Shown: in pieces, positions 1,416-16,905 of the stretch
Layout: each line of letters begins with the position of its first letter
Numbering within the stretch: position 1 is the stretch's first letter
DNA from: an uncultured Clostridia bacterium
Lineage (GTDB): Bacteria > Bacillota > Clostridia > TANB77 > CAG-508
Direction of reading: 5' to 3'
NCBI GenBank assembly: GCA_934120645.1
Contig: CAKOUO010000001.1
Location: 131,273-195,272, forward strand
DNA length: 64,000 bases
The notes under the pieces: model-generated
The model's input: the letters and a program-made list of their open reading frames with translations, nothing else
Told to the model about the DNA's origin: nothing
The model's database searches: none
Made by a program: the position numbers and the translations under genes

Positions 1416-4169
1416 ATGAAACTATTCAAAACATATAGTGAGAAAGAAGTAAAAAGGGTAATGCCAATAGTAAACAAAATAAATAGTTTAGAACCAGAAA
1501 TGGAAAAATTGACAGACCATGAATTAAGAGAGAAAACAAATTATTTTAAAAAGCAATTAGCTGAAGGAAAAACACTAGATGATATATTACCAGAAGCTTT
1601 TGCAGTTGTTAGAGAGGCCTCAAAAAGATCATTAGGAATGAGACATTTTGATGTCCAATTAATAGGTGGTATTATATTACATCAAGGAAGAATTGCAGAA
1701 ATGAAAACTGGTGAAGGTAAAACATTAGTTGCAACATTACCAGTATATTTAAACGCATTAGAAGGAAAAGGCGTACATGTTATTACAGTAAATGATTACT
1801 TAGCAAAAAGAGATAGTGAATGGATGGGAAAATTATATAAATTCTTAGGACTATCAGTAGGCTTAGTAATTGCTGGAATGGAACCACAAGCAAAACAAAA
1901 AGCATATGCAGCAGATATTACATATGGTACAAACAATGAATTTGGATTTGATTATTTAAGAGATAATATGGTTATTTATAAAAACCAATTAGTACAAAGA
2001 GGATTACACTATGCAATTGTCGATGAAATTGATAGTATTTTAATAGATGAAGCAAGAACACCACTTATTATTTCTGGTAGAGCAAATGAATCATCAGATT
2101 TATATAAAAAAGCAGATAGCTTTGTTAGAAAACTTGAAGCTAAAGTTATAGTAGAAGAAGATGTTAAAGATTTTGAACAAGCAGAAGATAATGAAAAATA
2201 TGATTATATAGTAGATTTAAAAGCAAAATCAGCATCACTTACACAAAAAGGTATAAAAAAGGCAGAAGAATTCTTTGGATTAGAAAACTTTAATGACTTA
2301 GAAAACTCTACATTAGTACACCATGTAAACCAAGCATTACGTGCGCACGGAGTTATGAAAAAAGATATAGATTACATCGTAAAAGATGGAGAAGTTTTAA
2401 TTGTTGATGAATTTACTGGACGTATTATGTATGGAAGAAGATATAACAATGGATTACATCAAGCAATAGAAGCTAAAGAAAAAGTAAAAATAGCAGATGA
2501 ATCAAAAACACTTGCAACAATTACATTCCAAAACTACTTTAGAATGTATGATAAATTATCTGGTATGACAGGTACAGCCATGACAGAAGAAGCAGAATTC
2601 GAAGAAATATATAATTTAGATGTTGTAGCTATTCCAACAAACAAACCTATGGTAAGAAAAGATGAAAATGATGTAATATACAAAAATGAAAATGCTAAAT
2701 TTAGAGCTGTAATAGAAAGTGTTAAAGAAAGTCATGCAAAAGGACAACCAGTTTTAATTGGTACAATATCTATTGAAAAATCAGAAAAATTAAGCAAACT
2801 ATTAAATGAAGCTAGAATACCTCATGAAGTATTAAATGCTAAATCACACGAAAAAGAAGCTATGATAATAGCACAAGCTGGTAAATTTGGAGCAGTTACA
2901 ATAGCAACAAACATGGCAGGACGTGGTACTGATATTATGCTTGGAGGAAACAGTGAATATTTAGCTAAAGAAGAAATGAAGAAAAACAAAGTGCCAGAAT
3001 ATTTAATAGAAGAATCTAATACTTACTATGAAACAGATGACCAAGATATATTAAGAGCAAGAGAACAATTCAAAAAATTAGTTACAAAATTTGAAGAAGA
3101 CATAAAAGAAGAAAAACAAAAAGTAATTGTAGCAGGAGGATTAAAAATAATCGGTACTGCAAGACATGAATCAAGGAGAATTGACAACCAATTAAGAGGA
3201 CGTTCTGGACGTCAAGGTGATGTCGGAGAATCTAAATTCTACATTGGATTAGATGATGATTTAATGAAAATATTTGGTGGAGATGCAATTACTAAAGTAT
3301 ATAATACATTAGGTGCAGATGAAGATATGCCAATACAATCACGAATTATCTCTAGAGCAGTTGAAAATGCTCAAAAGAAAGTAGAAGGAAGAAACTTCAG
3401 TATTCGTAAAAATGTATTAAAATATGATGATGTTATGAATGCACAAAGAGAAATTATCTATAAACAAAGAAGAGAAGTTCTTGATGGAGAAGACATCCAT
3501 GGAAATATCTTAAATATGATAAAGACAATTGCTGATGAAACAGTTGATATGTTTACAGAAGGAGAAGACGGAAAATCAGTAAATGTAGAAGCTTTAAATA
3601 CAGAAATAACAAATCAATTCGGCTTAGATATGAAAGAATTCATTAAAGAAAATGAAAACAATTCAAAAGCTATAGTAGAAGAACTAGAAAAACAAGCATT
3701 AGATAAATATCAATTAAAAGAAGATGAAATAACACCTGAAAAAATGAGAGAACTTGAAAGAGTTGTAATGCTTAAAGTAGTTGATGAAAAATGGATGAAT
3801 CATATTGATAATATGGACGAATTAAAAGATGGTATTGGATTAAGAGCATATGGACAACAAGATCCTGTTGTAAAATATAGGGTTGAAGGTATGGATATGT
3901 TTGAAGAAATGGTAGCAGATATAAAGACAGATGTTGTTAAAATTCTTATGAATATTAGAAAACAAAATGGTGATGTAAAAAGACAAGAAGCTGCAAAAAT
4001 CACAGGTGCAGCATTAGAAGCTATTCAAAGTGTAGATGGTGGTAAAAAAATAAATACACCTGAACATAGTCAAACAGTAGTAAATGAAGGCCCTAAAGTT
4101 GGTAGAAATGATCCTTGCCCTTGTGGAAGTGGAAAGAAATATAAGAACTGCTGTGGCAAAAACGCGTAA
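1416..4169 (+). CDS. secA: Preprotein translocase ATPase SecA
   Basis: 917 aa. Contains [11 protein letters not shown] (Walker A), [18 protein letters not shown], the GRSGRQGD motif and the C-terminal zinc finger [14 protein letters not shown]. Confidence 0.97.
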
Positions 4170-4263
4170 ATACTGAATTACAAGAATTTTTTTAAAAACA
4201 AAAATAGCAAAATCAGTTCGTTTTGTCAACAAAAATATAAAATTGCGAATAAAAATGCTAAAA

Positions 4264-4305
4264 AAGAAATGTAGACATATGATATATGTTAACATTTCTT
4301 TTTTT
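4264..4305 (+). terminator. Intrinsic terminator downstream of secA
   Basis: Stem aagaaatgt/acatttctt (4264-4272 / 4292-4300), extended by an inner acatat/atatgt pairing, followed by a T-run to 4305. Confidence 0.6.
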
Positions 4306-4498
4306 ATGCAAAAGAGGAATCAAAAAGAGAGGCATATAATTCTTTGTAAAAGGTAATTTATCTAGATAAAATTGATGAAATAATAAGTTATAGCATAGAA
4401 AATTTGATATTGCTTGAAAAAATAGGAAAATAATGGTAAAATAATATTGAAAAGTATAAGATGATAGATAAAATAATGTAAATTTTGGAGGTAAAACA

Positions 4499-5749
4499 GT
4501 GAAAATTATATTTTTTTACTATTATTACGATGACAAGATAAAAGACAAGCAAAGAGTAGAGTTTCCACCATTAGGTATGTTATATCTGTGTTCAGCTTTA
4601 GAAAAAAATGGTTGTGATGTAGAAGTTAAGTATTTTGACGAAAATACTAAAATAGAAGATATTCCAAATGCTGATATATATGCATATTCAATTTCATCTA
4701 CAGCTTCATATCCGACATATCTAAAATTATGTGAAAAATTAAAGAAAAAAGCTAAATATCATATTGCTGGAAACACTCAAGCAACGATATTTCCTCAAAA
4801 AATTTTAAAAGAAATGAAATTGGATGTAGTCTTCACAGGAGAAGGTGAAGAAACAGTTACAAAGTGGATACAAGACGGATGTAAAGAAAAAGGAATAATA
4901 AAAGGAGAAAGAGTTAATGTTGAGAATTTACCTTTTCCAGCAAGACATTTAATTCCAGATGAAAAGATATATATGAATAATCGTGTTGGAGGAAAGAGCA
5001 AAAATTCTATTAGTATGATTTCTTCAAGGGGGTGCTTATTTAGATGTAAGTTTTGTGCAATTCAAAATAGAGGAAAAGTAAAATTTAGAAATTTAAAAGA
5101 TTTTGAAGAAGAAGTAAAATATCTCTTAAAAAGATATTATAAATGTGATGGAATTACATTACTAGATGAAACATTTACACTTAATACAAAGCATGCGATA
5201 GGAATTGCTAATATCTTTAAGAAGTATGGCTTGAAATGGGAATGTAATTCTAGAGTAGATACAGTCAATGATGAAATTATACAGGCTTTAAGAAATAGCA
5301 ATTGCCAAGAAATAAGATTAGGAATTGAAAGTGGCTCACAAAGAATGGTTGATAATATGAATAAAGATATAAATTTAAAAGAATCAAAAAAAGTAATAAA
5401 AAAACTACATGAAAATGGAATACCGGTAAAATTATATATAATGCATGGATATCCAGGAGAAAATATAGAAAGTAGTTTAGAGACAATAAAATATTTAAAT
5501 GAATTAAGGGAATATATACATAGAATTAGTTTATATAGATTTGTACCATTGCCAGGTTCTCCAGTATTTGCAGAAGGAAAACTTAATCAATTAGATTGGA
5601 CAGATTACACAATATATGATAATAATAATCATTGGTGGGGAACACAAGCAGATTTTAATAATATGAATATAGGATATAGGATGTTAGAAAAATGTGTAAA
5701 ATCAATAAATAATAAAGAATATAGAAAAGAATTTGAAGAAGAGAGGTAA
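4499..5749 (+). CDS. B12-binding-domain radical SAM protein
   Basis: GTG start 7 nt after GGAGG (4487-4491). N-terminal Rossmann-like domain of about 130 aa. CLFRCKFC = CxxxCxxC cluster motif at aa 179-186 (nt 5033-5056). Downstream GIESGS-type radical-SAM core. Confidence 0.85.
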   Translation: MKIIFFYYYYDDKIKDKQRVEFPPLGMLYLCSALEKNGCDVEVKYFDENTKIEDIPNADIYAYSISSTASYPTYLKLCEKLKKKAKYHIAGNTQATIFPQKILKEMKLDVVFTGEGEETVTKWIQDGCKEKGIIKGERVNVENLPFPARHLIPDEKIYMNNRVGGKSKNSISMISSRGCLFRCKFCAIQNRGKVKFRNLKDFEEEVKYLLKRYYKCDGITLLDETFTLNTKHAIGIANIFKKYGLKWECNSRVDTVNDEIIQALRNSNCQEIRLGIESGSQRMVDNMNKDINLKESKKVIKKLHENGIPVKLYIMHGYPGENIESSLETIKYLNELREYIHRISLYRFVPLPGSPVFAEGKLNQLDWTDYTIYDNNNHWWGTQADFNNMNIGYRMLEKCVKSINNKEYRKEFEEER

Positions 5750-5757
5750 TAATAAAA

Positions 5758-6441
5758 ATGGAATGTTCATTTTGTAGTGAAATAAATAATAAAGAAGAAA
5801 ATAATTTTTTTGATATATATCTAAAAAAAGAATTTGAAAAAGAAGGATTAAATAGTAGAATAGTAGCAACTACAAAGAAATTTGTAATAATGCCTATGGT
5901 AGGACCACTAGTTCCAGGATATTTATTAATAGTACCAAAAGATCATTACTTATCAATAGCACAATTGCCAAAAGAACAAGTTGAAGAATTAAAAATGATA
6001 AAAGAAGAATTAAAAAAAGTGTTTAAGCAATATTATGGAAAATTTGTATTTTTCGAACATGGGGCATTGTCTTGTTCAGCAAAAGGCGGATGCTGTTCTG
6101 ATCATGCACACTTACATATAGTTGCAGTTGATATAGATGTAAAAGACGAGTTTAGTAAATATGGATACAAATTAAGAAAAATAGAAGACTACAGCGAAAT
6201 AATAGATCAAAAGCAAAGAAACACACCATATTTATATTATGAAAATCAAAATGAAGAAATGTTTGTTGCTGATGCACCAGTAGTAGAATCACAATTTATA
6301 AGAAAATTAATTGCGAAAGATATTAATGCATTAGATAGAGCTTTATGGAATGAAAATATTAGGAAGGATTGGATGATAGAGATAGTAAAAACTTTAAGAC
6401 CACATTTTGAAAATTTGAAAGGAACTTCAATATGGGAATAA
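5758..6441 (+). CDS. HIT-like / GalT-like nucleotide hydrolase or transferase
   Basis: Starts 8 nt after the radical-SAM stop. N-terminal CSFC (CxxC) and a histidine-triad-like DHAHLHIV at aa 115-122 (nt 6100-6123). Confidence 0.6.
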   Translation: MECSFCSEINNKEENNFFDIYLKKEFEKEGLNSRIVATTKKFVIMPMVGPLVPGYLLIVPKDHYLSIAQLPKEQVEELKMIKEELKKVFKQYYGKFVFFEHGALSCSAKGGCCSDHAHLHIVAVDIDVKDEFSKYGYKLRKIEDYSEIIDQKQRNTPYLYYENQNEEMFVADAPVVESQFIRKLIAKDINALDRALWNENIRKDWMIEIVKTLRPHFENLKGTSIWE

Positions 6442-6519
6442 AACAATTTTTAGGAATAAAATGGATTAAAGATAATCCACAGATGCTATTTTATGATAAT
6501 TTGACGCATTCTATAGAAT

Positions 6520-7380
6520 ATGAAGATTGTAGTCGGAAATATAGAGATTAAAAAGACTATGGAGAAACATTGCAAAGGCTATTATAATTTATTAAAAAGA
6601 GAAATAGTACCATGTCAATTTTTTACTGATTTGACGGGGAGTGAATATTGCCAATGCAAAGCATGTCAGACAAAGTCTGGATTTGATTTATGTTTAGGAT
6701 GTAATGGTAGTATATGTCGAACAAATAGTGATACAGCAAGAAGATTTTGCCATGAAGAACATCATGTATACCTTGCTTATTTTGCAAATGATAAATTAAA
6801 GGTAGGAACTGCGGCTAGTTACAGAAAATATGAAAGACTATTAGAACAAGGGGCTATTTATTCTATATTTTTAGCTCAAACTCCAAATGGAAGAATTGCA
6901 AGACAATTAGAGAGTAGAATATCAAATTTAGGAATAGCATCTAGAGTGAACTCATCTTATAAAATGAATAATTTTATAATAGATAGAGACCAAGAAGAAA
7001 TAGACAAGATGCTTATGAAAGAATATGAATCTATTTTACAAAGAATAGATGATAAATGTAAAAAATATTTTATTAAGCCAGAGTATAATAATTTTACAAA
7101 TATTTCTGATAAAGTAAAACAAAATTTATTAGAAGGAAGTAGACAATTAAATCTTTTTGGTAACATGGATGAACCAGAATATAAAGAATACACAAAAGTA
7201 TACAAACCAGAATATATATCAGGAGAAATCATGGCAACTGTTGGAAACTTGATATTGTTAATGAAAGATAATAAATATTCTGTAGTTAATATGAAAAATT
7301 TGGAGGGATGGATAGTCGACTTTAAAAAGAGAGAAATAGGAGAGAAAAGTAATGATAGCATTGACAAAGGCGAAAGATAG
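6520..7380 (+). CDS. Cys/His-rich zinc-ribbon protein with DUF2797-like region (hypothetical)
   Basis: Nine Cys in the first 80 aa (CQCKAC, CLGCNGSIC, FCHEEHH). The KLKVGTAASYRKYERLLEQGA block resembles DUF2797 as I recall it. There is no convincing SD before ATG 6520; an in-frame TAG at 6514 forbids a longer N-terminus. Confidence 0.45.
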   Translation: MKIVVGNIEIKKTMEKHCKGYYNLLKREIVPCQFFTDLTGSEYCQCKACQTKSGFDLCLGCNGSICRTNSDTARRFCHEEHHVYLAYFANDKLKVGTAASYRKYERLLEQGAIYSIFLAQTPNGRIARQLESRISNLGIASRVNSSYKMNNFIIDRDQEEIDKMLMKEYESILQRIDDKCKKYFIKPEYNNFTNISDKVKQNLLEGSRQLNLFGNMDEPEYKEYTKVYKPEYISGEIMATVGNLILLMKDNKYSVVNMKNLEGWIVDFKKREIGEKSNDSIDKGER

Positions 7381-7660
7381 AAATTTAATATCTAAATATG
7401 GAAAATTAAAAGGATGGGATATTTGTAATAGTTTAGGACTGCCATCTTTTGGAGATGTATACATTTTAAGCGACTATATAGATGAAAAGGATCCGAAAAT
7501 AAAAGAAATATTTGGTATAGACAAAATTATTTATGGTAATTTTCAGATGCCAAACAAACCATTCGGAATTATGATGAATATATATGAAGATAAATTTTGT
7601 GTATTTGAAGTGTGGAATATCGAAAGATCAATTAACAAAACAATAGAACTAGATAGATAA
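7352..7660 (+). CDS. Hypothetical 102-aa protein, translationally coupled to the upstream gene
   Basis: The ATG at 7352 is preceded by GGAGAG (7339-7344) and overlaps the upstream ORF by 29 nt. No recognisable motif. Confidence 0.45.
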   Translation: MIALTKAKDRNLISKYGKLKGWDICNSLGLPSFGDVYILSDYIDEKDPKIKEIFGIDKIIYGNFQMPNKPFGIMMNIYEDKFCVFEVWNIERSINKTIELDR

Positions 7661-7681
7661 AACTACCTAGTTTTATTGTTT

Positions 7682-8107
7682 CTATAACCAATTATTGTCA
7701 TATAGAACCTGTTTTGTAATATTACTTAATTTTCCTAACTTATCTAGTTCTTTTATTTCTTCTTTAGTATAAAATTGTGCGCCTGCTAAATCAGTTGCTG
7801 AGTGAACTAAATTTTTGTCATAATCTGCTGACCAGTAGATTATAATTCGATGTTCATCTGGATTATTAATAATTTCATAAGTTTTTAATTGTTTAATATT
7901 TGTAATTTCTAACCCTGTTTCTTCCATTGTTTCTCTTTTTACAGTATCTTCCATTCTTTCAAATAATTCAACACCACCTCCAGGTGTAATTATCATTCCT
8001 TTATTTGGTTCTTTATTTCTAATTCCTAATAATAATTTATTATTTGATTTTATTAGAACAGAACAACCTACCCTTATATTATTCAAAAGATATCGCCTCC
8101 TATGCAT
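7682..8107 (-). CDS. NUDIX hydrolase
   Basis: Nudix box GGGVELFERMEDTVKRETMEETGLE (GX5EX7REUXEEXGU). Convergent with the radical-SAM operon. Confidence 0.85.
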   Translation of the reverse strand: MHRRRYLLNNIRVGCSVLIKSNNKLLLGIRNKEPNKGMIITPGGGVELFERMEDTVKRETMEETGLEITNIKQLKTYEIINNPDEHRIIIYWSADYDKNLVHSATDLAGAQFYTKEEIKELDKLGKLSNITKQVLYDNNWL

Positions 8108-8188
8108 AAAGAATATAATAAGAATTATATTTTGTCAACATATTTAAAATATAAAAAATATATGATATAATTCAAAAAAAAGAAAGAA

Positions 8189-9352
8189 GTGATAATCTTG
8201 GAAATATATTTAGATAATGCTGCAACAACAAAAATGGATAATAGAGTTTTCGAAGAAATGGTGCCATATTTGAAAGAAAAGTATGGAAATCCATCATCAG
8301 CTTATAAAATAGGAAGAGATAATAAGAAAATAATTGAAGATTCAAGAAAAAAAGTGGCTTTAAATTTAAATGCAAATCCAAGTGAAATATATTTTACAAG
8401 TGGTGGAAGTGAAGCCGATAATATGGCTTTGAAGGGGATTGCATTAGGTAATGTTGATAAAGGAAAACATATTATTACAAGTAAAATAGAACATCCAGCA
8501 GTTTTAGATACATGTAAAGAATTAGAAAGAGAAGGATTCGAAATTTCATATGTCGGAGTAGATGAAAACGGAATTATAAAATTAAGAGAACTAGAAAATA
8601 CAATAAGAAAGGATACAATTCTAATTTCAATTATGTTTGCTAATAATGAGATTGGAACGATTCAACCAATAAATGAAATAAGTCAAATTGCAAAAAAATA
8701 TAATATTTTATTTCATACAGATTGTGTACAGGCAATAGGAAATGTTAAAATAGATGTAAAAAGTATGAATATAGATTCACTTTCATTGTCTGCACATAAA
8801 TTTTATGGACCAAAAGGAATAGGCGTATTATATTTAAAAAATGGAATAAAATTTAGAAAATATTTGAATGGGGGACATCAAGAAAGAAATAGAAGAGCGG
8901 GAACAGAAAATGTTGCAGGAATTATTGGGTTAGCTAAAGCAATAAACATAGTTCATGATAACTTGGAAGAAAACAATAAAAAAACAATTGAATTAAGAGA
9001 CTATTTTATAAATGAAATTAAGAAAAATATAGAAGAAGTAAAGATTAATGGAGATTTAATAAAAAGGTTGCCGGGAAATATAAATATTACTTTTAAATTT
9101 GTAGAAGCAGACAATATATTATATGAATTAGATAAAAAAGGTATATACATATCTACAGGTAGCGCTTGTACTACTGGGAGTATAGAATCTTCGCATGTAT
9201 TAAGAGCTATAGGATTGTCAGATACTGAGGCACATAGTACTATCAGAATTAGTATAGGAAAATATAATAATAAAGAAGAAATAGATTATACTATAAAATG
9301 TTTAATTGAAGTGATTAATATGCTAAGAAAATTATCTCCATTATATTACTAA
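8189..9352 (+). CDS. nifS: Cysteine desulfurase (NifS/IscS class V aminotransferase)
   Basis: GTG start. PLP-lysine motif SAHKFYGPKG and catalytic-Cys loop STGSACTTGS. No adjacent NifU/IscU scaffold gene. Confidence 0.88.
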   Translation: MIILEIYLDNAATTKMDNRVFEEMVPYLKEKYGNPSSAYKIGRDNKKIIEDSRKKVALNLNANPSEIYFTSGGSEADNMALKGIALGNVDKGKHIITSKIEHPAVLDTCKELEREGFEISYVGVDENGIIKLRELENTIRKDTILISIMFANNEIGTIQPINEISQIAKKYNILFHTDCVQAIGNVKIDVKSMNIDSLSLSAHKFYGPKGIGVLYLKNGIKFRKYLNGGHQERNRRAGTENVAGIIGLAKAINIVHDNLEENNKKTIELRDYFINEIKKNIEEVKINGDLIKRLPGNINITFKFVEADNILYELDKKGIYISTGSACTTGSIESSHVLRAIGLSDTEAHSTIRISIGKYNNKEEIDYTIKCLIEVINMLRKLSPLYY

Positions 9353-9434
9353 TAATATTAAGTATTGAAAATTTCTAAAATTATTATTATAATTAATTTA
9401 GGAAAATAAAAAATACTATAATAAAGGGGATAAA

Positions 9435-12257
9435 ATGAATAAAAAAACCAAAAGAAAAATAATAGTAATACTAATATTAGCAATATTAACATTTGCAAAT
9501 ATAGTATCAGCTGTAGCAGTACATTCTAACACAAATACAAATACAGTTGAAAATGGAAAAGAATTAGAATTTACAATTCGATTTAATGAAAAAGTTATAA
9601 CTGCAGATTTTTCAGTTCATTTTGACTCAGATAATTTAACATATATTGGAACATCAATAGAAGATTTAAAAACCAATTATATAAAAGAAAAATCTGAAAT
9701 GATTTGTTGTTATTATGATGTTAATAAAATTGGAACAGATACAATTTCGTTTAAATTTAAAGCAAATAAAGAAACAAATAAAACAAATATAAGAGTAACA
9801 AATATTACAGTACATACAAATTCTACAGAAATGCAAATTAATGATATTATTAGCGAAAATATTAAAATAATTAAAACTAATACAGAAACAAATAATAATA
9901 TAGTTCAAAATATAGTTAATAATTCAAACATACAACAGCAATTAGATGATTTAACAAAAAATGAAAATAAAGATACTACAACGGCAATAAGAGCATTACC
10001 TAAAACAGGTTTAGAATTTGATTTAAAAGATTTTTTAACAATAGTTATAGTAGGTTTGATTTTAATAATAGTGATAAAAAATGATAAATTAAGTAAAAAA
10101 ATAAAAATAATAATTTCTATAATTATTATTTTAATGGGAACAATGATATTTCTTAGTAAATATGTTTTTGCAAAAAATGATGACAAAATTTTTATAAATA
10201 AAACTGACAAAACTATTTTAATAGTACTTTCAACTTCAAATGAAGAAAGAAGTATGAGTATACAAAACTTTAAAGAAAAAACAAAAGCTGTAAATATAGA
10301 TAATAGTATACTTTTATCAGGAGTAACAGCAACATTTAAAAATAATGAAAAATATACAATAGAAGTATTTAGAGATGAAAACAAAAATGGATATGTAAAT
10401 TCAAGTGATATTTTTGAACTTTTAAATAATGAAAATATAAATACAAAAGATATAGAAGAACTTTGTAATTTTATTATAAAGAAAGAAGAATTTAAAAAAT
10501 ATAATAATATACAAAATGGATATGAAGAATTTAATGAAAAATCTATTATAACACCAAATGTAACACCATTAGAACCTGCAACAGATAGATATACACCTGT
10601 AAAAAATATAACAGAACTTAAAAACTTAAATGCAAAAGTAGGGGAGAAGTATAAAACATTAGGATATTATGAAGAAAATGATGGTGGTGCAGGAAGATAT
10701 GATATTATAGAAAAAACTTCAAATATAAAAGTAGATAATGGCTTATATATTGAATTAAATAACGGCTTAATCGCAAAGCTTGCAATTATAAAAGATACTA
10801 TTAATGTTAAACAATTTGGAGCCAAAGGAAATAGCATAAATAATGATACAGAATATTTAAGAAAAGCTATAAATTCTGGAATTGCTAATGTTGAATTTCC
10901 AAAAGGTGAATATAAAATTACAGACATTATAAGGTTGGAAACACCATCTACAAATATAATTGGAAATAATAGTACTATTTTTACAGATAATGATTTTAAT
11001 CCAGAAAAAACAAGTGAATTTTTATTTATTATGCAATCAGATAACTGTAATATAAGTAATTTAAATATTGAAGCAAGAGAGACAAAAAACATTGAAAATT
11101 TATATAATTCTCAGGTTTATGTTGGTGCTACAAATATAAAGATTATAGGTTGCACATTTAAAATTCCAGAAACAGCAAGTAGGGAACATTCATATGGCAA
11201 TATTGATTTATATACTGGTTGGCACAATGTGTTAATAGAAAATTGCAATTTATATTTAGCAAATGATGCCAAAGAAGGTGGATGCATTTGGGTTAGAGAC
11301 TTATTTAATAGAGGGGCAAGTGACTTAACATTTATAAATAATAAATGCTATAAAAAGTGCCATGATGAAATATTAGCAGTATTTATGGGAAGTATAGAAA
11401 ATGTTAATATTTTAAACAATACATTTATAATGCCAAATAGTACTGATCCAAGTACAATGTGTTTTACTTTAGGATCTGCTTCTAGTAAAAAAGCTGAAAA
11501 TATTAGATTTGAAGGAAATACAATAGATACTAAGGCTACAATGAGCTTATTAATTTCTAGAAATGCTACTAATTTAAGCATTAAAAATAATAAAGTTAAA
11601 TTTGAACGTGTAACAACATTAACAAATACATTTTTAATATATTTTCCAGAAAATAATTTAAAAGATGTAGTAATAGAGAATAATAATTTTGAAATTAATA
11701 ATAATACAGATAAATCAATAAATGGATTTATAGCTTCAAATTCTGAAAATATAATATTTAAAGAAAATACAATAACAGTAAATAGTGAAATTTCTGAAGT
11801 GTTTACAGGTGAATATACTACTACAAATAATAATATAACTTTTAATGGCTTTGCTAAAATCTTAGCAAATAAACCAAAAGAATTTATAGGAAACCATATT
11901 ATATTTAATAAAGGATTTGGTTCAATAGCTCAATATTATAATGGTAAACTTGATTGGGATAGTAATATAAAAAATAATATTTTTGAGAATAATTATGATG
12001 AAATTAGTGCAAATGAAAAATCAATATTACTAATGTTTAATGGAGGAAGTTTAAATAACCATATTGTTGATTTTGAAGAAAATACTATAAAGTCTGATAA
12101 AGCTAATTATGGACAAAATTTAATTTATCTTTTAAATTTGTCTGATGAAGAATCTCAAACTATCAAAATTATTAATAATAAAATTAATGGATATAAACAG
12201 GGATGGAAGGACAAAAATCAAGAAAAGCATAATATTATAACAGATAATAATACATAA
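9435..12257 (+). CDS. Surface protein: signal peptide, cohesin-like domain, internal LPKTG sorting signal, second TM, dockerin-like Ca loop, right-handed beta-helix
   Basis: One uninterrupted 940-codon ORF. Signal peptide aa 1-27. LPKTG at aa 188-192. The INVKQFGAKGNSINNDTEYLRKAI start is typical of pectate-lyase-3/tailspike-like beta-helices. The repetitive N-rich parallel-helix region runs to the C-terminus. Confidence 0.7.
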   Translation: MNKKTKRKIIVILILAILTFANIVSAVAVHSNTNTNTVENGKELEFTIRFNEKVITADFSVHFDSDNLTYIGTSIEDLKTNYIKEKSEMICCYYDVNKIGTDTISFKFKANKETNKTNIRVTNITVHTNSTEMQINDIISENIKIIKTNTETNNNIVQNIVNNSNIQQQLDDLTKNENKDTTTAIRALPKTGLEFDLKDFLTIVIVGLILIIVIKNDKLSKKIKIIISIIIILMGTMIFLSKYVFAKNDDKIFINKTDKTILIVLSTSNEERSMSIQNFKEKTKAVNIDNSILLSGVTATFKNNEKYTIEVFRDENKNGYVNSSDIFELLNNENINTKDIEELCNFIIKKEEFKKYNNIQNGYEEFNEKSIITPNVTPLEPATDRYTPVKNITELKNLNAKVGEKYKTLGYYEENDGGAGRYDIIEKTSNIKVDNGLYIELNNGLIAKLAIIKDTINVKQFGAKGNSINNDTEYLRKAINSGIANVEFPKGEYKITDIIRLETPSTNIIGNNSTIFTDNDFNPEKTSEFLFIMQSDNCNISNLNIEARETKNIENLYNSQVYVGATNIKIIGCTFKIPETASREHSYGNIDLYTGWHNVLIENCNLYLANDAKEGGCIWVRDLFNRGASDLTFINNKCYKKCHDEILAVFMGSIENVNILNNTFIMPNSTDPSTMCFTLGSASSKKAENIRFEGNTIDTKATMSLLISRNATNLSIKNNKVKFERVTTLTNTFLIYFPENNLKDVVIENNNFEINNNTDKSINGFIASNSENIIFKENTITVNSEISEVFTGEYTTTNNNITFNGFAKILANKPKEFIGNHIIFNKGFGSIAQYYNGKLDWDSNIKNNIFENNYDEISANEKSILLMFNGGSLNNHIVDFEENTIKSDKANYGQNLIYLLNLSDEESQTIKIINNKINGYKQGWKDKNQEKHNIITDNNT
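9996..10076 (+). other. Sortase sorting signal (LPKTG + hydrophobic helix, followed by a basic tail) located inside the ORF
   Basis: LPKTG at 9996-10010 and FLTIVIVGLILIIVI at 10032-10076, followed by KNDKLSKKIK. A second hydrophobic helix lies at 10107-10169. Confidence 0.6.
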
Positions 12258-12766: not shown

Positions 12767-12844
12767 ATAATATTGAAAAATTATGGATTTTGTGTTAATA
12801 TAATAAAGACATTTTAATAATAACATTAGGAAGGAGTCTTTTAT

Positions 12845-13129
12845 ATGGTAAAAGAAAGTATAACGTTTACAGAGAACGGAAAGCGGGAAGTAACAATAAC
12901 CTTGCCTTTAAAAAGAACTATGCAAAATAAGGCAATAACAGAAAATGATTATGATGATTATCTGCAAAGAAAAACGCAGGTATTGTCATATGATGCATTT
13001 GCATATGATTTGACATTGACACTATATAAAGTGTCGTTACAGAATGCAATTGTCTTCAATTACCGCGGGTCCGAAGAAAATATTCAGAAGTTTATTTCTA
13101 AGTGGAAACCTGATATACAAGAATTTTAG
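12845..13129 (+). CDS. Hypothetical protein (94 aa, orphan)
   Basis: AAGGAG (12831-12836) lies 8 nt before the ATG. Has its own terminator. CGG/CGC/GGG codons. Confidence 0.5.
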   Translation: MVKESITFTENGKREVTITLPLKRTMQNKAITENDYDDYLQRKTQVLSYDAFAYDLTLTLYKVSLQNAIVFNYRGSEENIQKFISKWKPDIQEF

Positions 13130-13139
13130 AAGACTTCAA

Positions 13140-13175
13140 TAGGGAGACGGAAATTCATCTCCCTATATTTTTATT
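13140..13175 (+). terminator. Intrinsic terminator
   Basis: tagggaga (13140-13147) pairs with tctcccta (13158-13165) around a 10-nt loop, followed by a T-rich tail. Confidence 0.55.
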
Positions 13176-13193
13176 AAACGGGAGAGTGAAAAT

Positions 13194-14301
13194 ATGTTAG
13201 AATTAGAAGAAACAATAAAAAAACTTCAAGAATTAAAAGAAAAAATAACGAATTTAGGTGAATCTCTTTGACATATCTAATTTACAAATAGAATTAAATG
13301 AATTAGAAGAAGAAACAAATAAACAAGAATTTTGGAATAATAATGAAAATACAACTAAAGTATTATCAAGAATAAAAAAAATAAAAAATAAATGTATAAA
13401 ATATAATGAATTAAAAAAAGAAATTAATAATTTATTAGAATTATCAGAACTAGTAAAACAAGAATACGATGAAGAAATAGCAATTGATATTATAAAAAAT
13501 ACAAAAAAACAAGAAAAAAACTTTGAAAAATTAGAACTTGAAACACTACTATCTGGTAAATATGATTCAAATAATGCAATAATTACAATTCATCCAGGAG
13601 CAGGAGGAACAGAATCACAAGATTGGGCAGAAATGCTATATAGAATGTATACTAGATGGGCAACCAAAAGCGATTATGAAGTAAAAGAACTTGATTATTT
13701 AGAAGGAGAAGAAGCTGGGTTAAAAAGCGTTACATTTGAAATAATAGGACAAAACGCTTATGGATATATGAAAAGTGAAAAAGGAGTTCATAGATTAGTT
13801 AGAATTTCACCATTCGACAGTGGAGGAAGAAGACATACATCATTTGCATCTGTTGAAGTTTTACCAGAAATAACAGAAGATATAGAAATAAATATAAACC
13901 CAGATGATTTAAGAATAGATACTTATAGAGCATCCGGAGCAGGAGGACAACATATAAATAAAACATCATCAGCAGTAAGAATAACACATATACCAACAAA
14001 CATTGTAGTAGCCTGCCAATCAGAACGTTCACAAATTCAAAATAGAGAAACAGCAATGAAAATGTTAAAATCCAAATTATTAGATTTAAAAGAACAAGAA
14101 CATAAAGAAAAAATAGAAGATTTAAAAGGAGAACAAAGAGAAATCGCATGGGGAAGCCAAATACGCTCTTATGTATTTTGCCCATACACAATGGTAAAAG
14201 ACCACAGAACCAATTACGAAGTTGGAAATGTTCAAGCAGTAATGGATGGAGATTTAGATGGTTTTATGGAAAGCTATTTAAAACAAAAAAGTTGTCAATA
14301 G
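13194..14301 (+). CDS. prfB: Peptide chain release factor 2, expressed through a programmed +1 frameshift (13194-13268 joined to 13270-14301)
   Basis: ATG 13194 opens a 25-codon frame ending CTT TGA C (TGA at 13269-13271). The long ORF in the +1 frame carries the SPF motif (ISPFDSGGRRHTSF) and GGQ (SGAGGQHINK). Confidence 0.93.
13256..13272 (+). promoter_or_regulatory. RF2 autoregulatory +1 frameshift site
   Basis: SD-like AGGTG (13256-13260) lies upstream of the slippery CTT TGA C (13266-13272), the canonical prfB recoding signal. Confidence 0.85.
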
Positions 14302-15416: not shown

Positions 15417-16826
15417 TTATTTTTCAACAGCTTTGTCGATACCATAAGAGTTTACCCGGTACACATAGCCCATTCCAAGAATACCTGTTTTTTTGATACC
15501 AAGTTCTTTTTGTGCTCTTGCTTCAAGTGCTTCTTTATTTTTTGGCTCGCCATGATTGAATAGAATTGACAAAGGTGCAAATTGTAGAAAAAATTCAATT
15601 ATCTGGTCTGCAGTTGCATGTGATGAAAATTCACCAGTTTGCTTTACTTCTGCATTTTTAATTACAGAGTGACCATCTTTAAATAGAATTTCTTCACCAT
15701 AGTCTGCTTCAACAATCTTTTTAGCAAGAGTACCTTCAGATGCATATCCAGGGATATACAACAAAGCATTTGAATTGGATAAGAAATGAGGAATATATGT
15801 TGCTGCTGGTCCATTACTTCCCATACCAGATGTAGAAATAAATATTGCTCTTTCCGTAGAATTCAAGAGAGCCGGTCTTGTTTTATTATCTACAAACTGA
15901 ATATTGTAAGGGAAGAAATTTTTGGCTTCTTCTCTTAAGCGCAGAATGTTACTGCGGTCAAGATATCGAAATGTATAGGCTGCTGTAGTTGTACCGTCAA
16001 CCCGTACAGGATAATCTTTAGGAATTTTTCCTTCATCCTGCAATTTTCTTATACGGTACATTAATTCCTGAGCTCGTCCTTGACCAAAAGCACAATTAAA
16101 TATTAATTGGTTTCTTGAACAAGCCTCAACAATGTCATCTTCCCAGATTTGCTGGATGTCACAAGAATTTGTAGAACCATATGTTGCTTCTGAAATGATA
16201 GTCAAATTGGGTAATGCATATACCCAATATGGAAATGGCTTAATATCCAAAAAGATGTTATTAGGCTTATAGTCTCCTGTATAAAGAAGATTAATAATTC
16301 CGCCCGGTTCATCAATTTGAACCAAAATACAAGAAGCTCCAATTAGATGCCCATTATTAAAGAATGTTACACTGATGTTGCTATGAATCTTTACAGTTTG
16401 TTCATACTTAACGGTTTCAATTTGCTTAATGGTCTGATTAATATCACTTTCTGAAAAAAGAATTGGCCGTTTTTTTAATTTAGCATCTCTTTTCATGATG
16501 TTGTAGCTGTCCAATAGACCAATATCTATAACAGCTGCTGATGCGTCAGACATGTAGATTTTCTTGTTGTAACCTTTTCTAACAAAGATAGGTAGTGCAC
16601 CATCGTGGTCCAGGTGGGTGTGAGTAAGTAATATTGCATTAATTTTTTCTGGATTGACGCTATCATTATACTCAATACCGTGATGACCTTCACCTTGATA
16701 CATACCATAGTCTACTAAAAACCGAAACTTTTCTCCATCAGAAAAATGAACGGTATTTCTAATACATGAACCTGTTACGCCTTTATGATATCCACGTATG
16801 TCGACATAAGGTTTTCCTTTTGCCAT
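15417..16826 (-). CDS. Beta-CASP metallo-beta-lactamase-fold nuclease (CPSF/TTHA0252-like)
   Basis: VTGS...DYGMYQG N-terminus and HTHLDHDG (HxHxDH, nt 16605-16622). Also NNGHLIGAS, YTGDY, SEATYG (motif A), FSSHA (motif B) and NHGE (motif C). The second ATG (16826) has correct spacing to AAAGGAG. Confidence 0.8.
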   Translation of the reverse strand: MAKGKPYVDIRGYHKGVTGSCIRNTVHFSDGEKFRFLVDYGMYQGEGHHGIEYNDSVNPEKINAILLTHTHLDHDGALPIFVRKGYNKKIYMSDASAAVIDIGLLDSYNIMKRDAKLKKRPILFSESDINQTIKQIETVKYEQTVKIHSNISVTFFNNGHLIGASCILVQIDEPGGIINLLYTGDYKPNNIFLDIKPFPYWVYALPNLTIISEATYGSTNSCDIQQIWEDDIVEACSRNQLIFNCAFGQGRAQELMYRIRKLQDEGKIPKDYPVRVDGTTTAAYTFRYLDRSNILRLREEAKNFFPYNIQFVDNKTRPALLNSTERAIFISTSGMGSNGPAATYIPHFLSNSNALLYIPGYASEGTLAKKIVEADYGEEILFKDGHSVIKNAEVKQTGEFSSHATADQIIEFFLQFAPLSILFNHGEPKNKEALEARAQKELGIKKTGILGMGYVYRVNSYGIDKAVEK

Positions 16827-16905
16827 ATTCATAACTCCTTTCTTTTCACAAAACTTTGATTTTATGCCATTTTATAAAACAGCAAGCTAAAGAGTTTCTA
16901 TACAA

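Follow-up and report, generated by a model that had tools for sequence, protein, structure and literature searches.

Positions 4,499 to 8,107 of the 64,000-nt stretch of uncultured Clostridia DNA analysed here (the whole stretch is called the window) carry genes for a B12-binding radical S-adenosylmethionine (SAM) enzyme, a histidine triad (HIT)-like enzyme and a DUF2797 protein, the remnant of an ATP-grasp gene, and a convergent Nudix gene. The locus is tentatively regarded as one copy of a conserved, rare and previously undescribed accessory cassette, horizontally exchanged and with a core of four proteins. The gene set recurs in about 45 fetched comparison loci (labelled L0xx), including loci from other phyla and from an archaeon, and is therefore not a chance adjacency. 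It is an undescribed system built from known enzyme superfamilies and one unclassified ATP-grasp family; it is classed in this way because the membership tests failed except at the superfamily level, and because both PADLOC v2 and the searched literature were negative. The copy in this genome is probably inactive, since 182 codons of its ATP-grasp gene have been deleted.

A first-pass annotation made from the sequence had described the segment as a candidate nucleotide-centred operon of four genes with a convergent Nudix gene, matching no characterised pathway known to it. On re-translation, all of its open reading frames (ORFs) were recovered (4499-5749, 5758-6441, 6520-7380 and 7352-7660 on the forward strand, 7682-8107 on the reverse strand), as were the motifs CLFRCKFC (5033-5056) and HAHLHIV (6103-6123) and the nine Cys within the first 80 residues of the third protein. 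The family calls that it had drawn from motifs were upheld by comparison with hidden Markov models (HMMs), the Pfam scores of the radical SAM, HIT-like, DUF2797 and Nudix proteins all lying above the cut-offs. It had made its proposal depend on co-occurrence of the genes outside this genome, which the comparison loci display, and no characterised pathway with this gene set was matched in PADLOC, among the NCBIfam equivalogs or in the searched literature. The first two genes are separated by 8 nt, the third and fourth overlap by 29 nt, and the convergent stop codons lie 21 nt apart. Two promoter-like sites, together with a GGAGG ribosome-binding site located between them and the GTG start codon at 4499, fit an independent operon. 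No riboswitch or other Rfam family was found in window positions 3900-9500. The features of the locus are as follows.

4414-4474, forward strand: two promoter-like sites, TTGAAA-17-TAAAAT with TG and TTGAAA-16-TAAAAT (consensus scan)
4499-5749, forward strand: B12-binding (class B) radical SAM enzyme, 416 aa, CxxxCxxC at residues 179-186, appears intact (Pfam)
5758-6441, forward strand: HIT-like enzyme, 227 aa, with N-terminal CxxC, EHG motif, HxHxH at residues 116-120 and C-terminal extension (Pfam)
6432-6551, forward strand: upstream zero-frame start of the DUF2797 gene (MGIKQFLGIKW...EDCS-R-KYRD, then stop), its ATG overlapping the stop codon of the HIT-like gene (comparison with intact homologues)
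6520-7380, forward strand: main reading frame of the DUF2797 gene, called as 286 aa from an internal ATG (Pfam DUF2797)
7352-7660, forward strand: ATP-grasp gene remnant, 102 aa, residues 1-55 fused in frame to about 238-284 of a 284-aa protein (BLASTP, DNA alignment, junction mapping)
7647-7672, reverse strand: terminator-like hairpin between the convergent gene ends (consensus scan only)
7682-8107, reverse strand: small MutT-like Nudix hydrolase with a complete Nudix box, convergent on the operon (Pfam NUDIX)
8189-9352, forward strand: NifS-type cysteine desulfurase, found after the Nudix gene wherever the Clostridial cassette occurs (NCBIfam FeS_nifS, 544 bits against a cut-off of 530.75)

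The order radical SAM, HIT-like, DUF2797, ATP-grasp is common to many contigs of gut and digester Clostridia, and several of the related contigs come from human-gut, chicken or anaerobic-digester metagenomes. The same four-gene order was observed in a distant lineage of uncultured bacteria known from metagenome-assembled genomes (MAGs; L008/L024, 47% identity) and in L034, and the four-component set is also present in MAGs of Treponema, Gracilibacteria and Methanosarcina. The HIT-like, DUF2797 and ATP-grasp proteins occur together in every informative locus. At one of these (L003), DUF2797, the HIT-like protein and a divergent ATP-grasp protein are encoded with no radical SAM enzyme, next to a canonical HIT hydrolase (E=3e-25) and a protein with a weak PRA-PH/MazG-like match (E=0.009, below the cut-off). 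The invariant core is the HIT-like, DUF2797 and ATP-grasp trio, usually accompanied by the B12-radical SAM enzyme. The ATP-grasp marker was detected in 14 of 185,579 species genomes, patchily across phyla and both prokaryotic domains; this count was obtained with a narrower alignment, the alignment of 59 sequences being too diverse for pattern-based genome scanning. A third, word-index search for homologues yielded almost no additional distant members.

The fourth gene had at first been described as encoding a small protein, but it was found by BLASTP, DNA alignment and junction mapping to be what is left of a 284-aa ATP-grasp gene. In BLASTP against L001, the 102-aa ORF covers residues 1-60 and 238-284 of a conserved protein of 284 aa, the one encoded after DUF2797 in every relative. 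The DNA alignment, with the junction mapped against L012, revealed an in-frame deletion of 546 nt (182 codons) with a junction microhomology of about 2 nt. The deletion removes the conserved motifs CRxDxP, PRYK and VGxGFDxGD-x2-RGK-x2-H, and the lost residues (about 56-237) include the invariant R62, D64, R117, D144, K152 and H155, so that the ORF in the window has no intact catalytic core. Since the exact 102-aa product is present on seven contigs of up to 313 kb, and forms a cluster of one, the lesion is real and lineage-specific rather than an assembly error.

By sequence, the 284-aa protein matched nothing in Pfam, NCBIfam, PADLOC or the PDB, and its fold was revealed by structure prediction only. 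An AlphaFold2 (AF2) model built from 15 homologues reached a predicted local distance difference test score (pLDDT) of 88.6 and a predicted template modelling score (pTM) of 0.85. In Foldseek, the best matches of this model were the ATP-binding domain of rifampin phosphotransferase (5fbs/5hv1, E=5e-5 to 7e-5, probability 1.0), with further matches to D-Ala-D-Ala ligase (Ddl), PurK and biotin carboxylase. The protein is accordingly modelled as an ATP-grasp fold, in a previously unclassified family of the PPDK_N/rifampin-phosphotransferase type. An exhaustive profile search recovered 160 clusters at 50% identity among 1.84 billion for this family, the members of which are labelled P0xxx. Longer members contain tandem domain duplications (P0157, P0165). 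One member of 647 aa (P0154) carries, in addition to the family domain, a C-terminal segment of PPDK_N and a PEP-utilizers mobile (swivel) domain, a fusion that ties the family to phosphotransfer enzymes of the pyruvate phosphate dikinase (PPDK) type. By Pfam, no such swivelling phospho-histidine domain is present in the stand-alone 284-aa protein; it occurs only in P0154. No member of the family was found in IMG/VR, GenBank phages or PLSDB plasmids, and neither the window version nor the full-length version matched a PADLOC-DB v2 model. Two side observations may be added: one form of the family has a hydrophobic N-terminal extension that, by eye, looks membrane-anchored, and in P0154 Gly positions are read as Trp, probably because the sequence comes from an organism in which UGA encodes Gly.

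The first gene product of the cassette combines a B12-binding domain (Pfam, 40.4 bits against a cut-off of 32.1, 3e-10, residues 21-120) with a Radical_SAM core (89.9 bits against 29.5, 2.7e-25, residues 173-333), and its cluster motif is C179-x3-C183-x2-C186; the union of cobalamin domain and radical SAM core defines class B. It is a divergent class-B enzyme, which is 86-87% identical to its orthologues in L013 and L001. It belongs to none of the characterised equivalogs (PhpK, HpnJ, Mmp10, BchE, AprD4, BzaD and others), the NCBIfam scores being far under the cut-offs; the best was 112.6 bits for the PhpK family against a cut-off of 600, and another match reached 108.7 against 251. Its closest NCBIfam likenesses, all weak, are natural-product P- and C-methyltransferases (PhpK, Sden_1168, HpnJ, Mmp10-like), and the closest solved structures are 9ccb and AprD4 (6fd2), with no OxsB chain among the PDB matches at E<=0.01. 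In PADLOC-DB v2, only a generic and partial similarity to PDC-M51A was found (E=6.6e-18). At the distant loci of Treponema, Gracilibacteria and Methanosarcina, the B12-radical SAM proteins are larger and are joined by a further radical SAM enzyme that scores above the variant_rSAM cut-off of 125 (243 and 222 bits).

The second protein belongs to the HIT superfamily, with Pfam scores of 37.2 for DcpS_C (cut-off 24), 32.8 for CwfJ_C_1 (21) and 30.3 for HIT (21.5), and its HAHLHIV motif occupies residues 116-122. Residues 49-218 align with human CWF19L1 (8ro2, E=2.5e-5) over both the HIT core and the C-terminal extension, i.e. the CwfJ C-terminal region. Among seven diverse members, taken from Clostridia to Methanosarcina and Treponema, the residues C3, C6, H63, E100, H101, H116, H118 and H120 are invariant. 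Because CxxC, EHG and HxHxH are retained over this whole range, the protein is very likely, as judged from its sequence, a catalytically active enzyme that works through a nucleotidyl-histidine. It was not assigned to the GalT or Ap4A phosphorylase equivalogs, the score for ATP adenylyltransferase being 24 bits against 290 and that for galT 19.8 against 102. Against PHROGs it matches phrog_23000, a phage family of unknown function, over the full length (E=1e-19); a tblastn search of 50,697 GenBank phage records turned up no homologue, and a scan of IMG/VR returned one weak locus (L035). No PADLOC-DB v2 model matches the protein.

The third gene was rightly flagged as resembling DUF2797 (Pfam, 67.6 bits against a cut-off of 25, 1.9e-18, profile positions 28-227 of 227), but its start had been misplaced; the reading frame begins 88 nt upstream, at 6432, and in another frame. 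The protein comprises a Cys-rich zinc-ribbon region, a conserved core (VYLAYF-x5-KVGTA-x8-R-x3-RLLEQG) and a beta-rich C-terminal domain. Intact homologues are 314 aa long and start with MGVKQFLGIKW, and the internal ATG at 6520 is not preceded by a Shine-Dalgarno (SD)-like sequence. Relative to intact genes (L029, L024), the gene in the window has a 1-nt insertion. The single CGG codon of its upstream ORF, at 6534-6536, is the proposed site of a +1 shift: when the C at 6534 is omitted, a 315-aa protein results that is colinear with the intact 314-aa homologues. Identity to the intact protein of L029 is 74% for the upstream piece and 67% for the downstream part.

This arrangement is not peculiar to the window; split genes that change frame at a single CGG were also noted at L001, L004, L012, L015-L023, L031, L036 and L039-L047. 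Sixteen split DUF2797 loci were checked (window, L001, L004, L012, L015-L020, L023, L031, L036, L039, L040 and L043), and in all 16 the upstream ORF contains exactly one CGG, located at the frame change; dropping its C gives a protein of 302-316 aa colinear with the intact homologues. The CGG stands at one of two independent positions. The first, codon 35/36, is used in the window (TGT AGT CGG AAA), L012, L016-L020, L031, L039, L040 and L043, and the second, codon 69, in L001, L015 and L036 (AGC CGG TAG) and in L004 and L023 (ACT CGG AAC). The codon preceding CGG varies (AGT, AAA, GAA, AAT, GAT, AGC or ACT) while the C stays fixed. Identity to L029 across the split genes is 47-74% for the upstream piece and 53-76% for the downstream body. 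CGG is the rarest Arg codon, with 0.38 per 1000 codons in the window and none among 4,798 codons of L016. At the Clostridial loci, none of the 26,133 codons in the radical SAM, HIT, DUF2797-body, ATP-grasp and Nudix genes is CGG; in the upstream DUF2797 pieces, CGG makes up 14 of 911 codons, all 14 of them at the shift site.

The split genes are probably best explained by +1 ribosomal frameshifting at a CGG that is decoded slowly, and the pattern suggests that a programmed frame change evolved twice in the same gene. It reads as programmed because CGG is tied to the shift in 16 of 16 genes, at two positions, is absent elsewhere in the cassette, and follows an upstream piece that is as conserved as the remainder. 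Neither an RNA structure exceeding shuffled controls nor an SD-like element was found at the shift site, and no tRNA genes lie within the window. Independent decay of the split genes was the initial reading and was dropped as the main explanation after the CGG analysis; selenocysteine read-through was ruled out, as the two parts lie in different frames. The closest known parallel is prfB, which encodes release factor 2 (RF2) and in which a +1 shift at a slowly decoded codon is likewise required for the full-length protein. In prfB the slow codon is a stop codon, whereas in DUF2797 it is the rare sense codon CGG, with a variable preceding codon, no conserved slippery codon in the P site, and neither of the stimulatory elements mentioned above. 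The window itself contains prfB at 13258-14301, with a canonical CTT-TGA-C +1 site at 13266 and a short upstream ORF (MLELEE...GESL, then stop) that continues in the +1 frame.

An AF2 model of an intact DUF2797 homologue (pLDDT 83) has a beta-rich N-terminal region, a Cys-rich zinc ribbon, an alpha/beta core and a beta-rich C-terminal domain; Foldseek against the PDB and BFVD gave no significant fold match to the whole model. The core (VYLAYF...KVG...R...E) may be T5orf172/GIY-YIG-like, and this stays a lead. One of five DUF2797 core sequences matched T5orf172 over the full model length (E=0.003, 18.5 bits, under the cut-off of 20), and GIY-YIG/T5orf172 proteins appeared at BFVD ranks 9, 15, 21, 22, 37 and 50, at a non-significant E=0.28-1.5. 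A profile search of the PDB with the core returned only a tag artefact (ENLYFQGA). In the literature found, DUF2797 appears only as an uncharacterised entry, and no PADLOC-DB v2 model matches the protein.

The convergent gene encodes a Nudix protein (Pfam NUDIX, 50.3 bits against a cut-off of 21.1, 3.2e-13) with the box GGVELFERMEDTVKRETMEETG from residue 44. Its PDB matches are generic MutT-like proteins, no substrate-specific NCBIfam equivalog was reached, and the only PADLOC match was a generic one to PDC-S07. The Nudix gene adjoins the cassette in several Clostridial genomic contexts and is missing at L008/L024 and at L025, L026 and L027 (the Methanosarcina, Treponema and Gracilibacteria loci among them), so it is a lineage-specific accessory and not a member of the core. 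The first-pass annotation had left out NifS, which travels with the Clostridial cassette in secA-prfB, SpoIIID, Suf and transposase-flanked contexts and is probably its Fe-S or sulfur supplier. Nudix and NifS are thus attachments of the cassette in the Clostridial lineage only, across several contexts.

The cassette had been placed in a variable slot between secA and prfB. Within the clade this is instead a long-held location that does not vary rapidly; the cassette alleles have nonetheless been exchanged between lineages. By SecA identity the window is nearest to L001 (93%), whereas its HIT, DUF2797, Nudix and NifS proteins are nearer to L013. The cassette proteins are nearly as conserved as SecA, and identities that are incongruent with SecA while remaining near its level indicate exchange between lineages under strong purifying selection. 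Copies with damage were found in the window and at L004-L007, L019, L028 and L045.

Several copies lie near mobile or defence-type genes. In close relatives, integrase fragments lie between secA and the radical SAM gene; this segment has been lost from the window, where only the last 120 nt or so of the spacer upstream of the radical SAM gene is shared with those relatives. In a variant of the secA-side island (L014, 1-3808), an integrase, a Schlafen/AlbA_2-HATPase_c_4 protein and a GHKL HATPase_c_3 protein are encoded upstream of the cassette. At L008 the cassette is preceded by a lysin-like amidase, a serine recombinase and AbiQ, and at L031 a transposase is nearby. In the Methanosarcina locus an 883-aa protein with a weak DUF4062 match is encoded upstream.

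Some details of these contexts deserve a separate record. The Schlafen/AlbA_2-HATPase_c_4 protein of L014 has weak PADLOC matches to models associated with prokaryotic Argonaute (pAgo) and to CARF-type models, and with the GHKL gene it may form a separate defence-type gene pair. The AbiQ/ToxN-type toxin gene of L008 (3011-3982, reverse strand; PADLOC AbiQ, E=2e-40) lies with an adjacent 102-aa ORF between the serine recombinase and the cassette. The DUF2797 and ATP-grasp genes of the Methanosarcina locus are separated by some 1 kb (L025, 8790-9863) in which no ORF reaches 70 aa; a decayed gene or an RNA may lie there. At the Gracilibacteria locus, the DUF2797 gene is followed by a frame (L026, about 12800-13664) whose translation looks RhuM-like/Fic-DOC-type by eye, and two upstream genes likewise look Fic/RhuM-like by eye.

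In PADLOC-DB v2, the component proteins match the models of no single system, and the distant radical SAM proteins have no match; a combination of HIT-like, DUF2797, ATP-grasp and radical SAM proteins was not found in the searched literature. Parts of known systems can nevertheless be compared. In fosfomycin biosynthesis, the cytidylyltransferase Fom1, the B12-radical SAM methyltransferase Fom3 and the hydrolase FomD act such that the methylase meets a CMP-linked substrate. The same logic is proposed here, with a B12-radical SAM enzyme acting on a nucleotide-linked substrate that a nucleotidyltransferase supplies and a phosphoanhydride hydrolase afterwards releases. The cassette differs in that it contains no phosphoenolpyruvate (PEP) mutase or other phosphonate gene, its nucleotidyl enzyme is of the HIT type rather than the cytidylyltransferase fold, and its hydrolase is Nudix rather than FomD (DUF402); the fosfomycin pathway, for its part, has no counterpart of the ATP-grasp and DUF2797 proteins. 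In oxetanocin A biosynthesis, the B12-radical SAM enzyme OxsB is paired with a nucleotide phosphohydrolase, the HD-domain protein OxsA, and like the prokaryotic viperins (pVips) it rewrites a nucleotide into an antiviral analogue. The cassette has no HD-domain partner, and two further conserved cassette proteins have no equivalent in either system. The analogy to viperin that had been drawn earlier fails at the family level, since the radical SAM enzyme is of class B with a B12 domain, which viperin does not have, and it matches no viperin model in PADLOC.

Among PEP-utilising or PPDK-type kinases (rifampin phosphotransferase, PEP synthase, the Campylobacter glutamine kinase Cj1418), the same ATP-grasp fold is found as in the model of the 284-aa protein. 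The cassette family differs by standing alone without a swivelling phospho-histidine domain or a substrate-binding domain, by escaping recognition by Pfam PPDK_N, and by always being encoded beside a HIT enzyme and DUF2797. The HIT-like protein shares its core and C-terminal extension with the CwfJ/CWF19L1 (Drn1) and DcpS branch. It differs from these in being a prokaryotic, stand-alone protein of 227 aa with a full HxHxH and an N-terminal CxxC, whose gene shares an operon with those for radical SAM and ATP-grasp enzymes, and nothing ties it to splicing or mRNA decapping.

The reading favoured here, although at somewhat less than even confidence, is that the cassette is a mobile nucleotide-modifying accessory module for which a role in conflict or defence is the most likely use. 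The nucleotide-centred idea of the first-pass annotation gains support from the invariant HIT triad, the ATP-grasp enzyme as fourth component, the Nudix pairing in Clostridia, and the HIT hydrolase and weak PRA-PH/MazG-like match at L003. In the proposed scheme, the ATP-grasp enzyme would activate a substrate at the expense of ATP, by phosphorylation or in another way. The HIT enzyme would form a covalent nucleotidyl-histidine intermediate at His118 and either pass the nucleotide to the activated substrate or remove it. The B12-radical SAM enzyme would then act on the nucleotide-linked intermediate in a chemically hard radical step, which is most likely a methylation. Nudix would clear the product or by-products, a task for which the canonical HIT hydrolase and the possible MazG-like enzyme could substitute at L003. 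DUF2797, with its zinc ribbon and possibly GIY-YIG/T5orf172-like core, would serve as a low-abundance nucleic-acid-binding partner or effector, and the +1 frameshift at the rare CGG may hold its level low, possibly in a conditional manner. The conflict or defence role is rated the most likely use because of the genomic contexts, i.e. the integrase fragments, AbiQ, serine recombinase, Schlafen/GHKL genes and transposase. A bolder form of this proposal, which is unlikely, is a new mobile immune or conflict system of Bacteria and Archaea in which the B12-radical SAM enzyme, the HIT nucleotidyl-enzyme and the stand-alone PPDK-type ATP-grasp protein jointly make a modified nucleotide; DUF2797 would be its effector or sensor, produced only through a 'hungry' CGG +1 frameshift that evolved twice and that could couple activation to the state of translation or tRNA, for example during phage infection.

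Several observations speak against the conflict-module proposal. No PADLOC model matches any component beyond generic similarity, and no homologues were found in phage or plasmid records or in IMG/VR, within the searches described above for each protein. Defence-type neighbours occur in few contexts only. Within the clade of Clostridia, the cassette remains at a single place in the chromosome and the conservation of its proteins comes close to that of SecA, which suits a physiological, housekeeping-like role at least as well as defence. The phospho-histidine swivel domain that PPDK-type kinases normally need is missing from the ATP-grasp family, except in P0154. The GIY-YIG/T5orf172 assignment of DUF2797, drawn from one sub-threshold HMM match and non-significant fold matches, is weak.

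The same stable location and strong conservation, extending to a small-genome (1.57 Mb) Clostridia MAG, would also fit a biosynthetic cassette for a small molecule or the cell surface with no role in immunity, a possibility that is on balance unlikely although not negligible. Its product would be a nucleotide-activated, radical-methylated metabolite, for example of phosphoramidate, phosphonate or sugar-phosphate type (an antibiotic, a cofactor or a glycan decoration), with the ATP-grasp protein as kinase, the HIT protein as nucleotidyltransferase, the radical SAM enzyme for tailoring and Nudix as the releasing hydrolase. The likeness of the radical SAM enzyme to natural-product P- and C-methyltransferases agrees with this, as does the co-travel of NifS, which is expected of a cluster-demanding pathway, and the glycosyltransferase and GtrA genes downstream of the cassette at L004. 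Precedents are Fom1/Fom3/FomD and the pathway to O-methyl phosphoramidate (MeOPN) in Campylobacter, which begins with a PPDK-like kinase. However, consistent linkage to transporter, glycosyltransferase, PEP mutase or scaffold genes is lacking, it is not obvious what DUF2797 would do in such a pathway, and the association with integrase and AbiQ, the sporadic cross-domain spread and a frameshift-limited component would be unusual for one. It is less probable still that the cassette modifies or repairs the ends of RNA or DNA, or modifies bases, with DUF2797 binding the nucleic acid, the ATP-grasp and HIT proteins processing 5'/3' ends or caps much as aprataxin or DcpS do, and the B12-radical SAM enzyme methylating the nucleic acid. 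The best Pfam families of the HIT protein (DcpS_C and CwfJ_C_1) do act on RNA caps or lariats, the zinc ribbon and weak T5orf172 signal of DUF2797 (a DNA-binding family of the GIY-YIG clan) point the same way, and Nudix enzymes include RNA-decapping enzymes. Yet the ligase, kinase-phosphatase, helicase and methyltransferase partners of known RNA-repair systems are missing, and the ATP-grasp protein resembles kinases of small molecules or proteins (rifampin phosphotransferase) rather than nucleic-acid ligases.

The damaged copies raise the question of pseudogene decay in gut Clostridia, with no programmed frameshift and no current function of the cassette in the clade. The ATP-grasp deletion in the window is inactivating; L004-L007 lack the radical SAM gene and have a fragmented NifS gene; the radical SAM gene is truncated in L019, L044 and L045, DUF2797 carries an extra break in L045, and the ATP-grasp gene is fragmented in L028. 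Pure decay holds for the window copy, but as a general explanation it is unlikely. The frame change always falls on CGG, a codon otherwise found in none of the 26,133 cassette codons, and arose at two positions; its C persists although the codons around it differ; the upstream piece matches the rest of the gene in conservation; and the other genes are 75-90% identical between lineages, near the SecA level. It is hardly credible that the genes are unrelated neighbours or an already characterised system such as viperin, oxetanocin, fosfomycin or PDC-M51. The weak PADLOC likenesses of the radical SAM enzyme to PDC-M51A (partial, as given above) and of Nudix to PDC-S07 could be cited in favour, but the same gene order is found across phyla and in an archaeon, the other proteins have no PADLOC match, the NCBIfam equivalog scores are far under the cut-offs, and the combination was not found in the searched literature.

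Two further ORFs in the window were noted beyond the cassette. A 940-aa ORF at 9435-12257, between NifS and prfB, appears surface-protein-like by eye, with an N-terminal hydrophobic segment and Asn-rich repeats; the corresponding interval of the close relatives L012 and L013 is occupied by just two short ORFs (104 and 107 aa), which gives the 940-aa ORF the appearance of an insertion in the present lineage. A 471-aa ORF at 15417-16832 on the reverse strand has a local GC content of 0.354, against about 0.27, and its stop-to-stop frame contains four of the few in-frame CGG codons of the window; it may have been acquired horizontally.

The finding goes beyond the first-pass annotation in that the system spans both prokaryotic domains and includes a new ATP-grasp family and a probable case of sense-codon +1 recoding. 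If the proposal is correct, it would be an undescribed multi-enzyme system whose ATP-grasp family lacks a Pfam or NCBIfam model, and it would provide the first functional context for DUF2797. The biochemistry of the eukaryotic CwfJ/CWF19 HIT proteins is poorly understood, and the cassette would supply a prokaryotic relative of them that is apparently competent in catalysis. The CGG-linked frame change, at two independent sites in one gene, would be a rare bacterial example of +1 recoding at a sense codon outside prfB, and one that could easily be tested with a reporter. The source is an uncultured, low-GC Clostridia bacterium, and the whole cassette, at about 3.7 kb, is small enough for direct synthesis. 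B12-radical SAM enzymes working on nucleotide-linked substrates yield antivirals and antibiotics such as oxetanocin and fosfomycin, and the product of the cassette could likewise be a new bioactive nucleotide.

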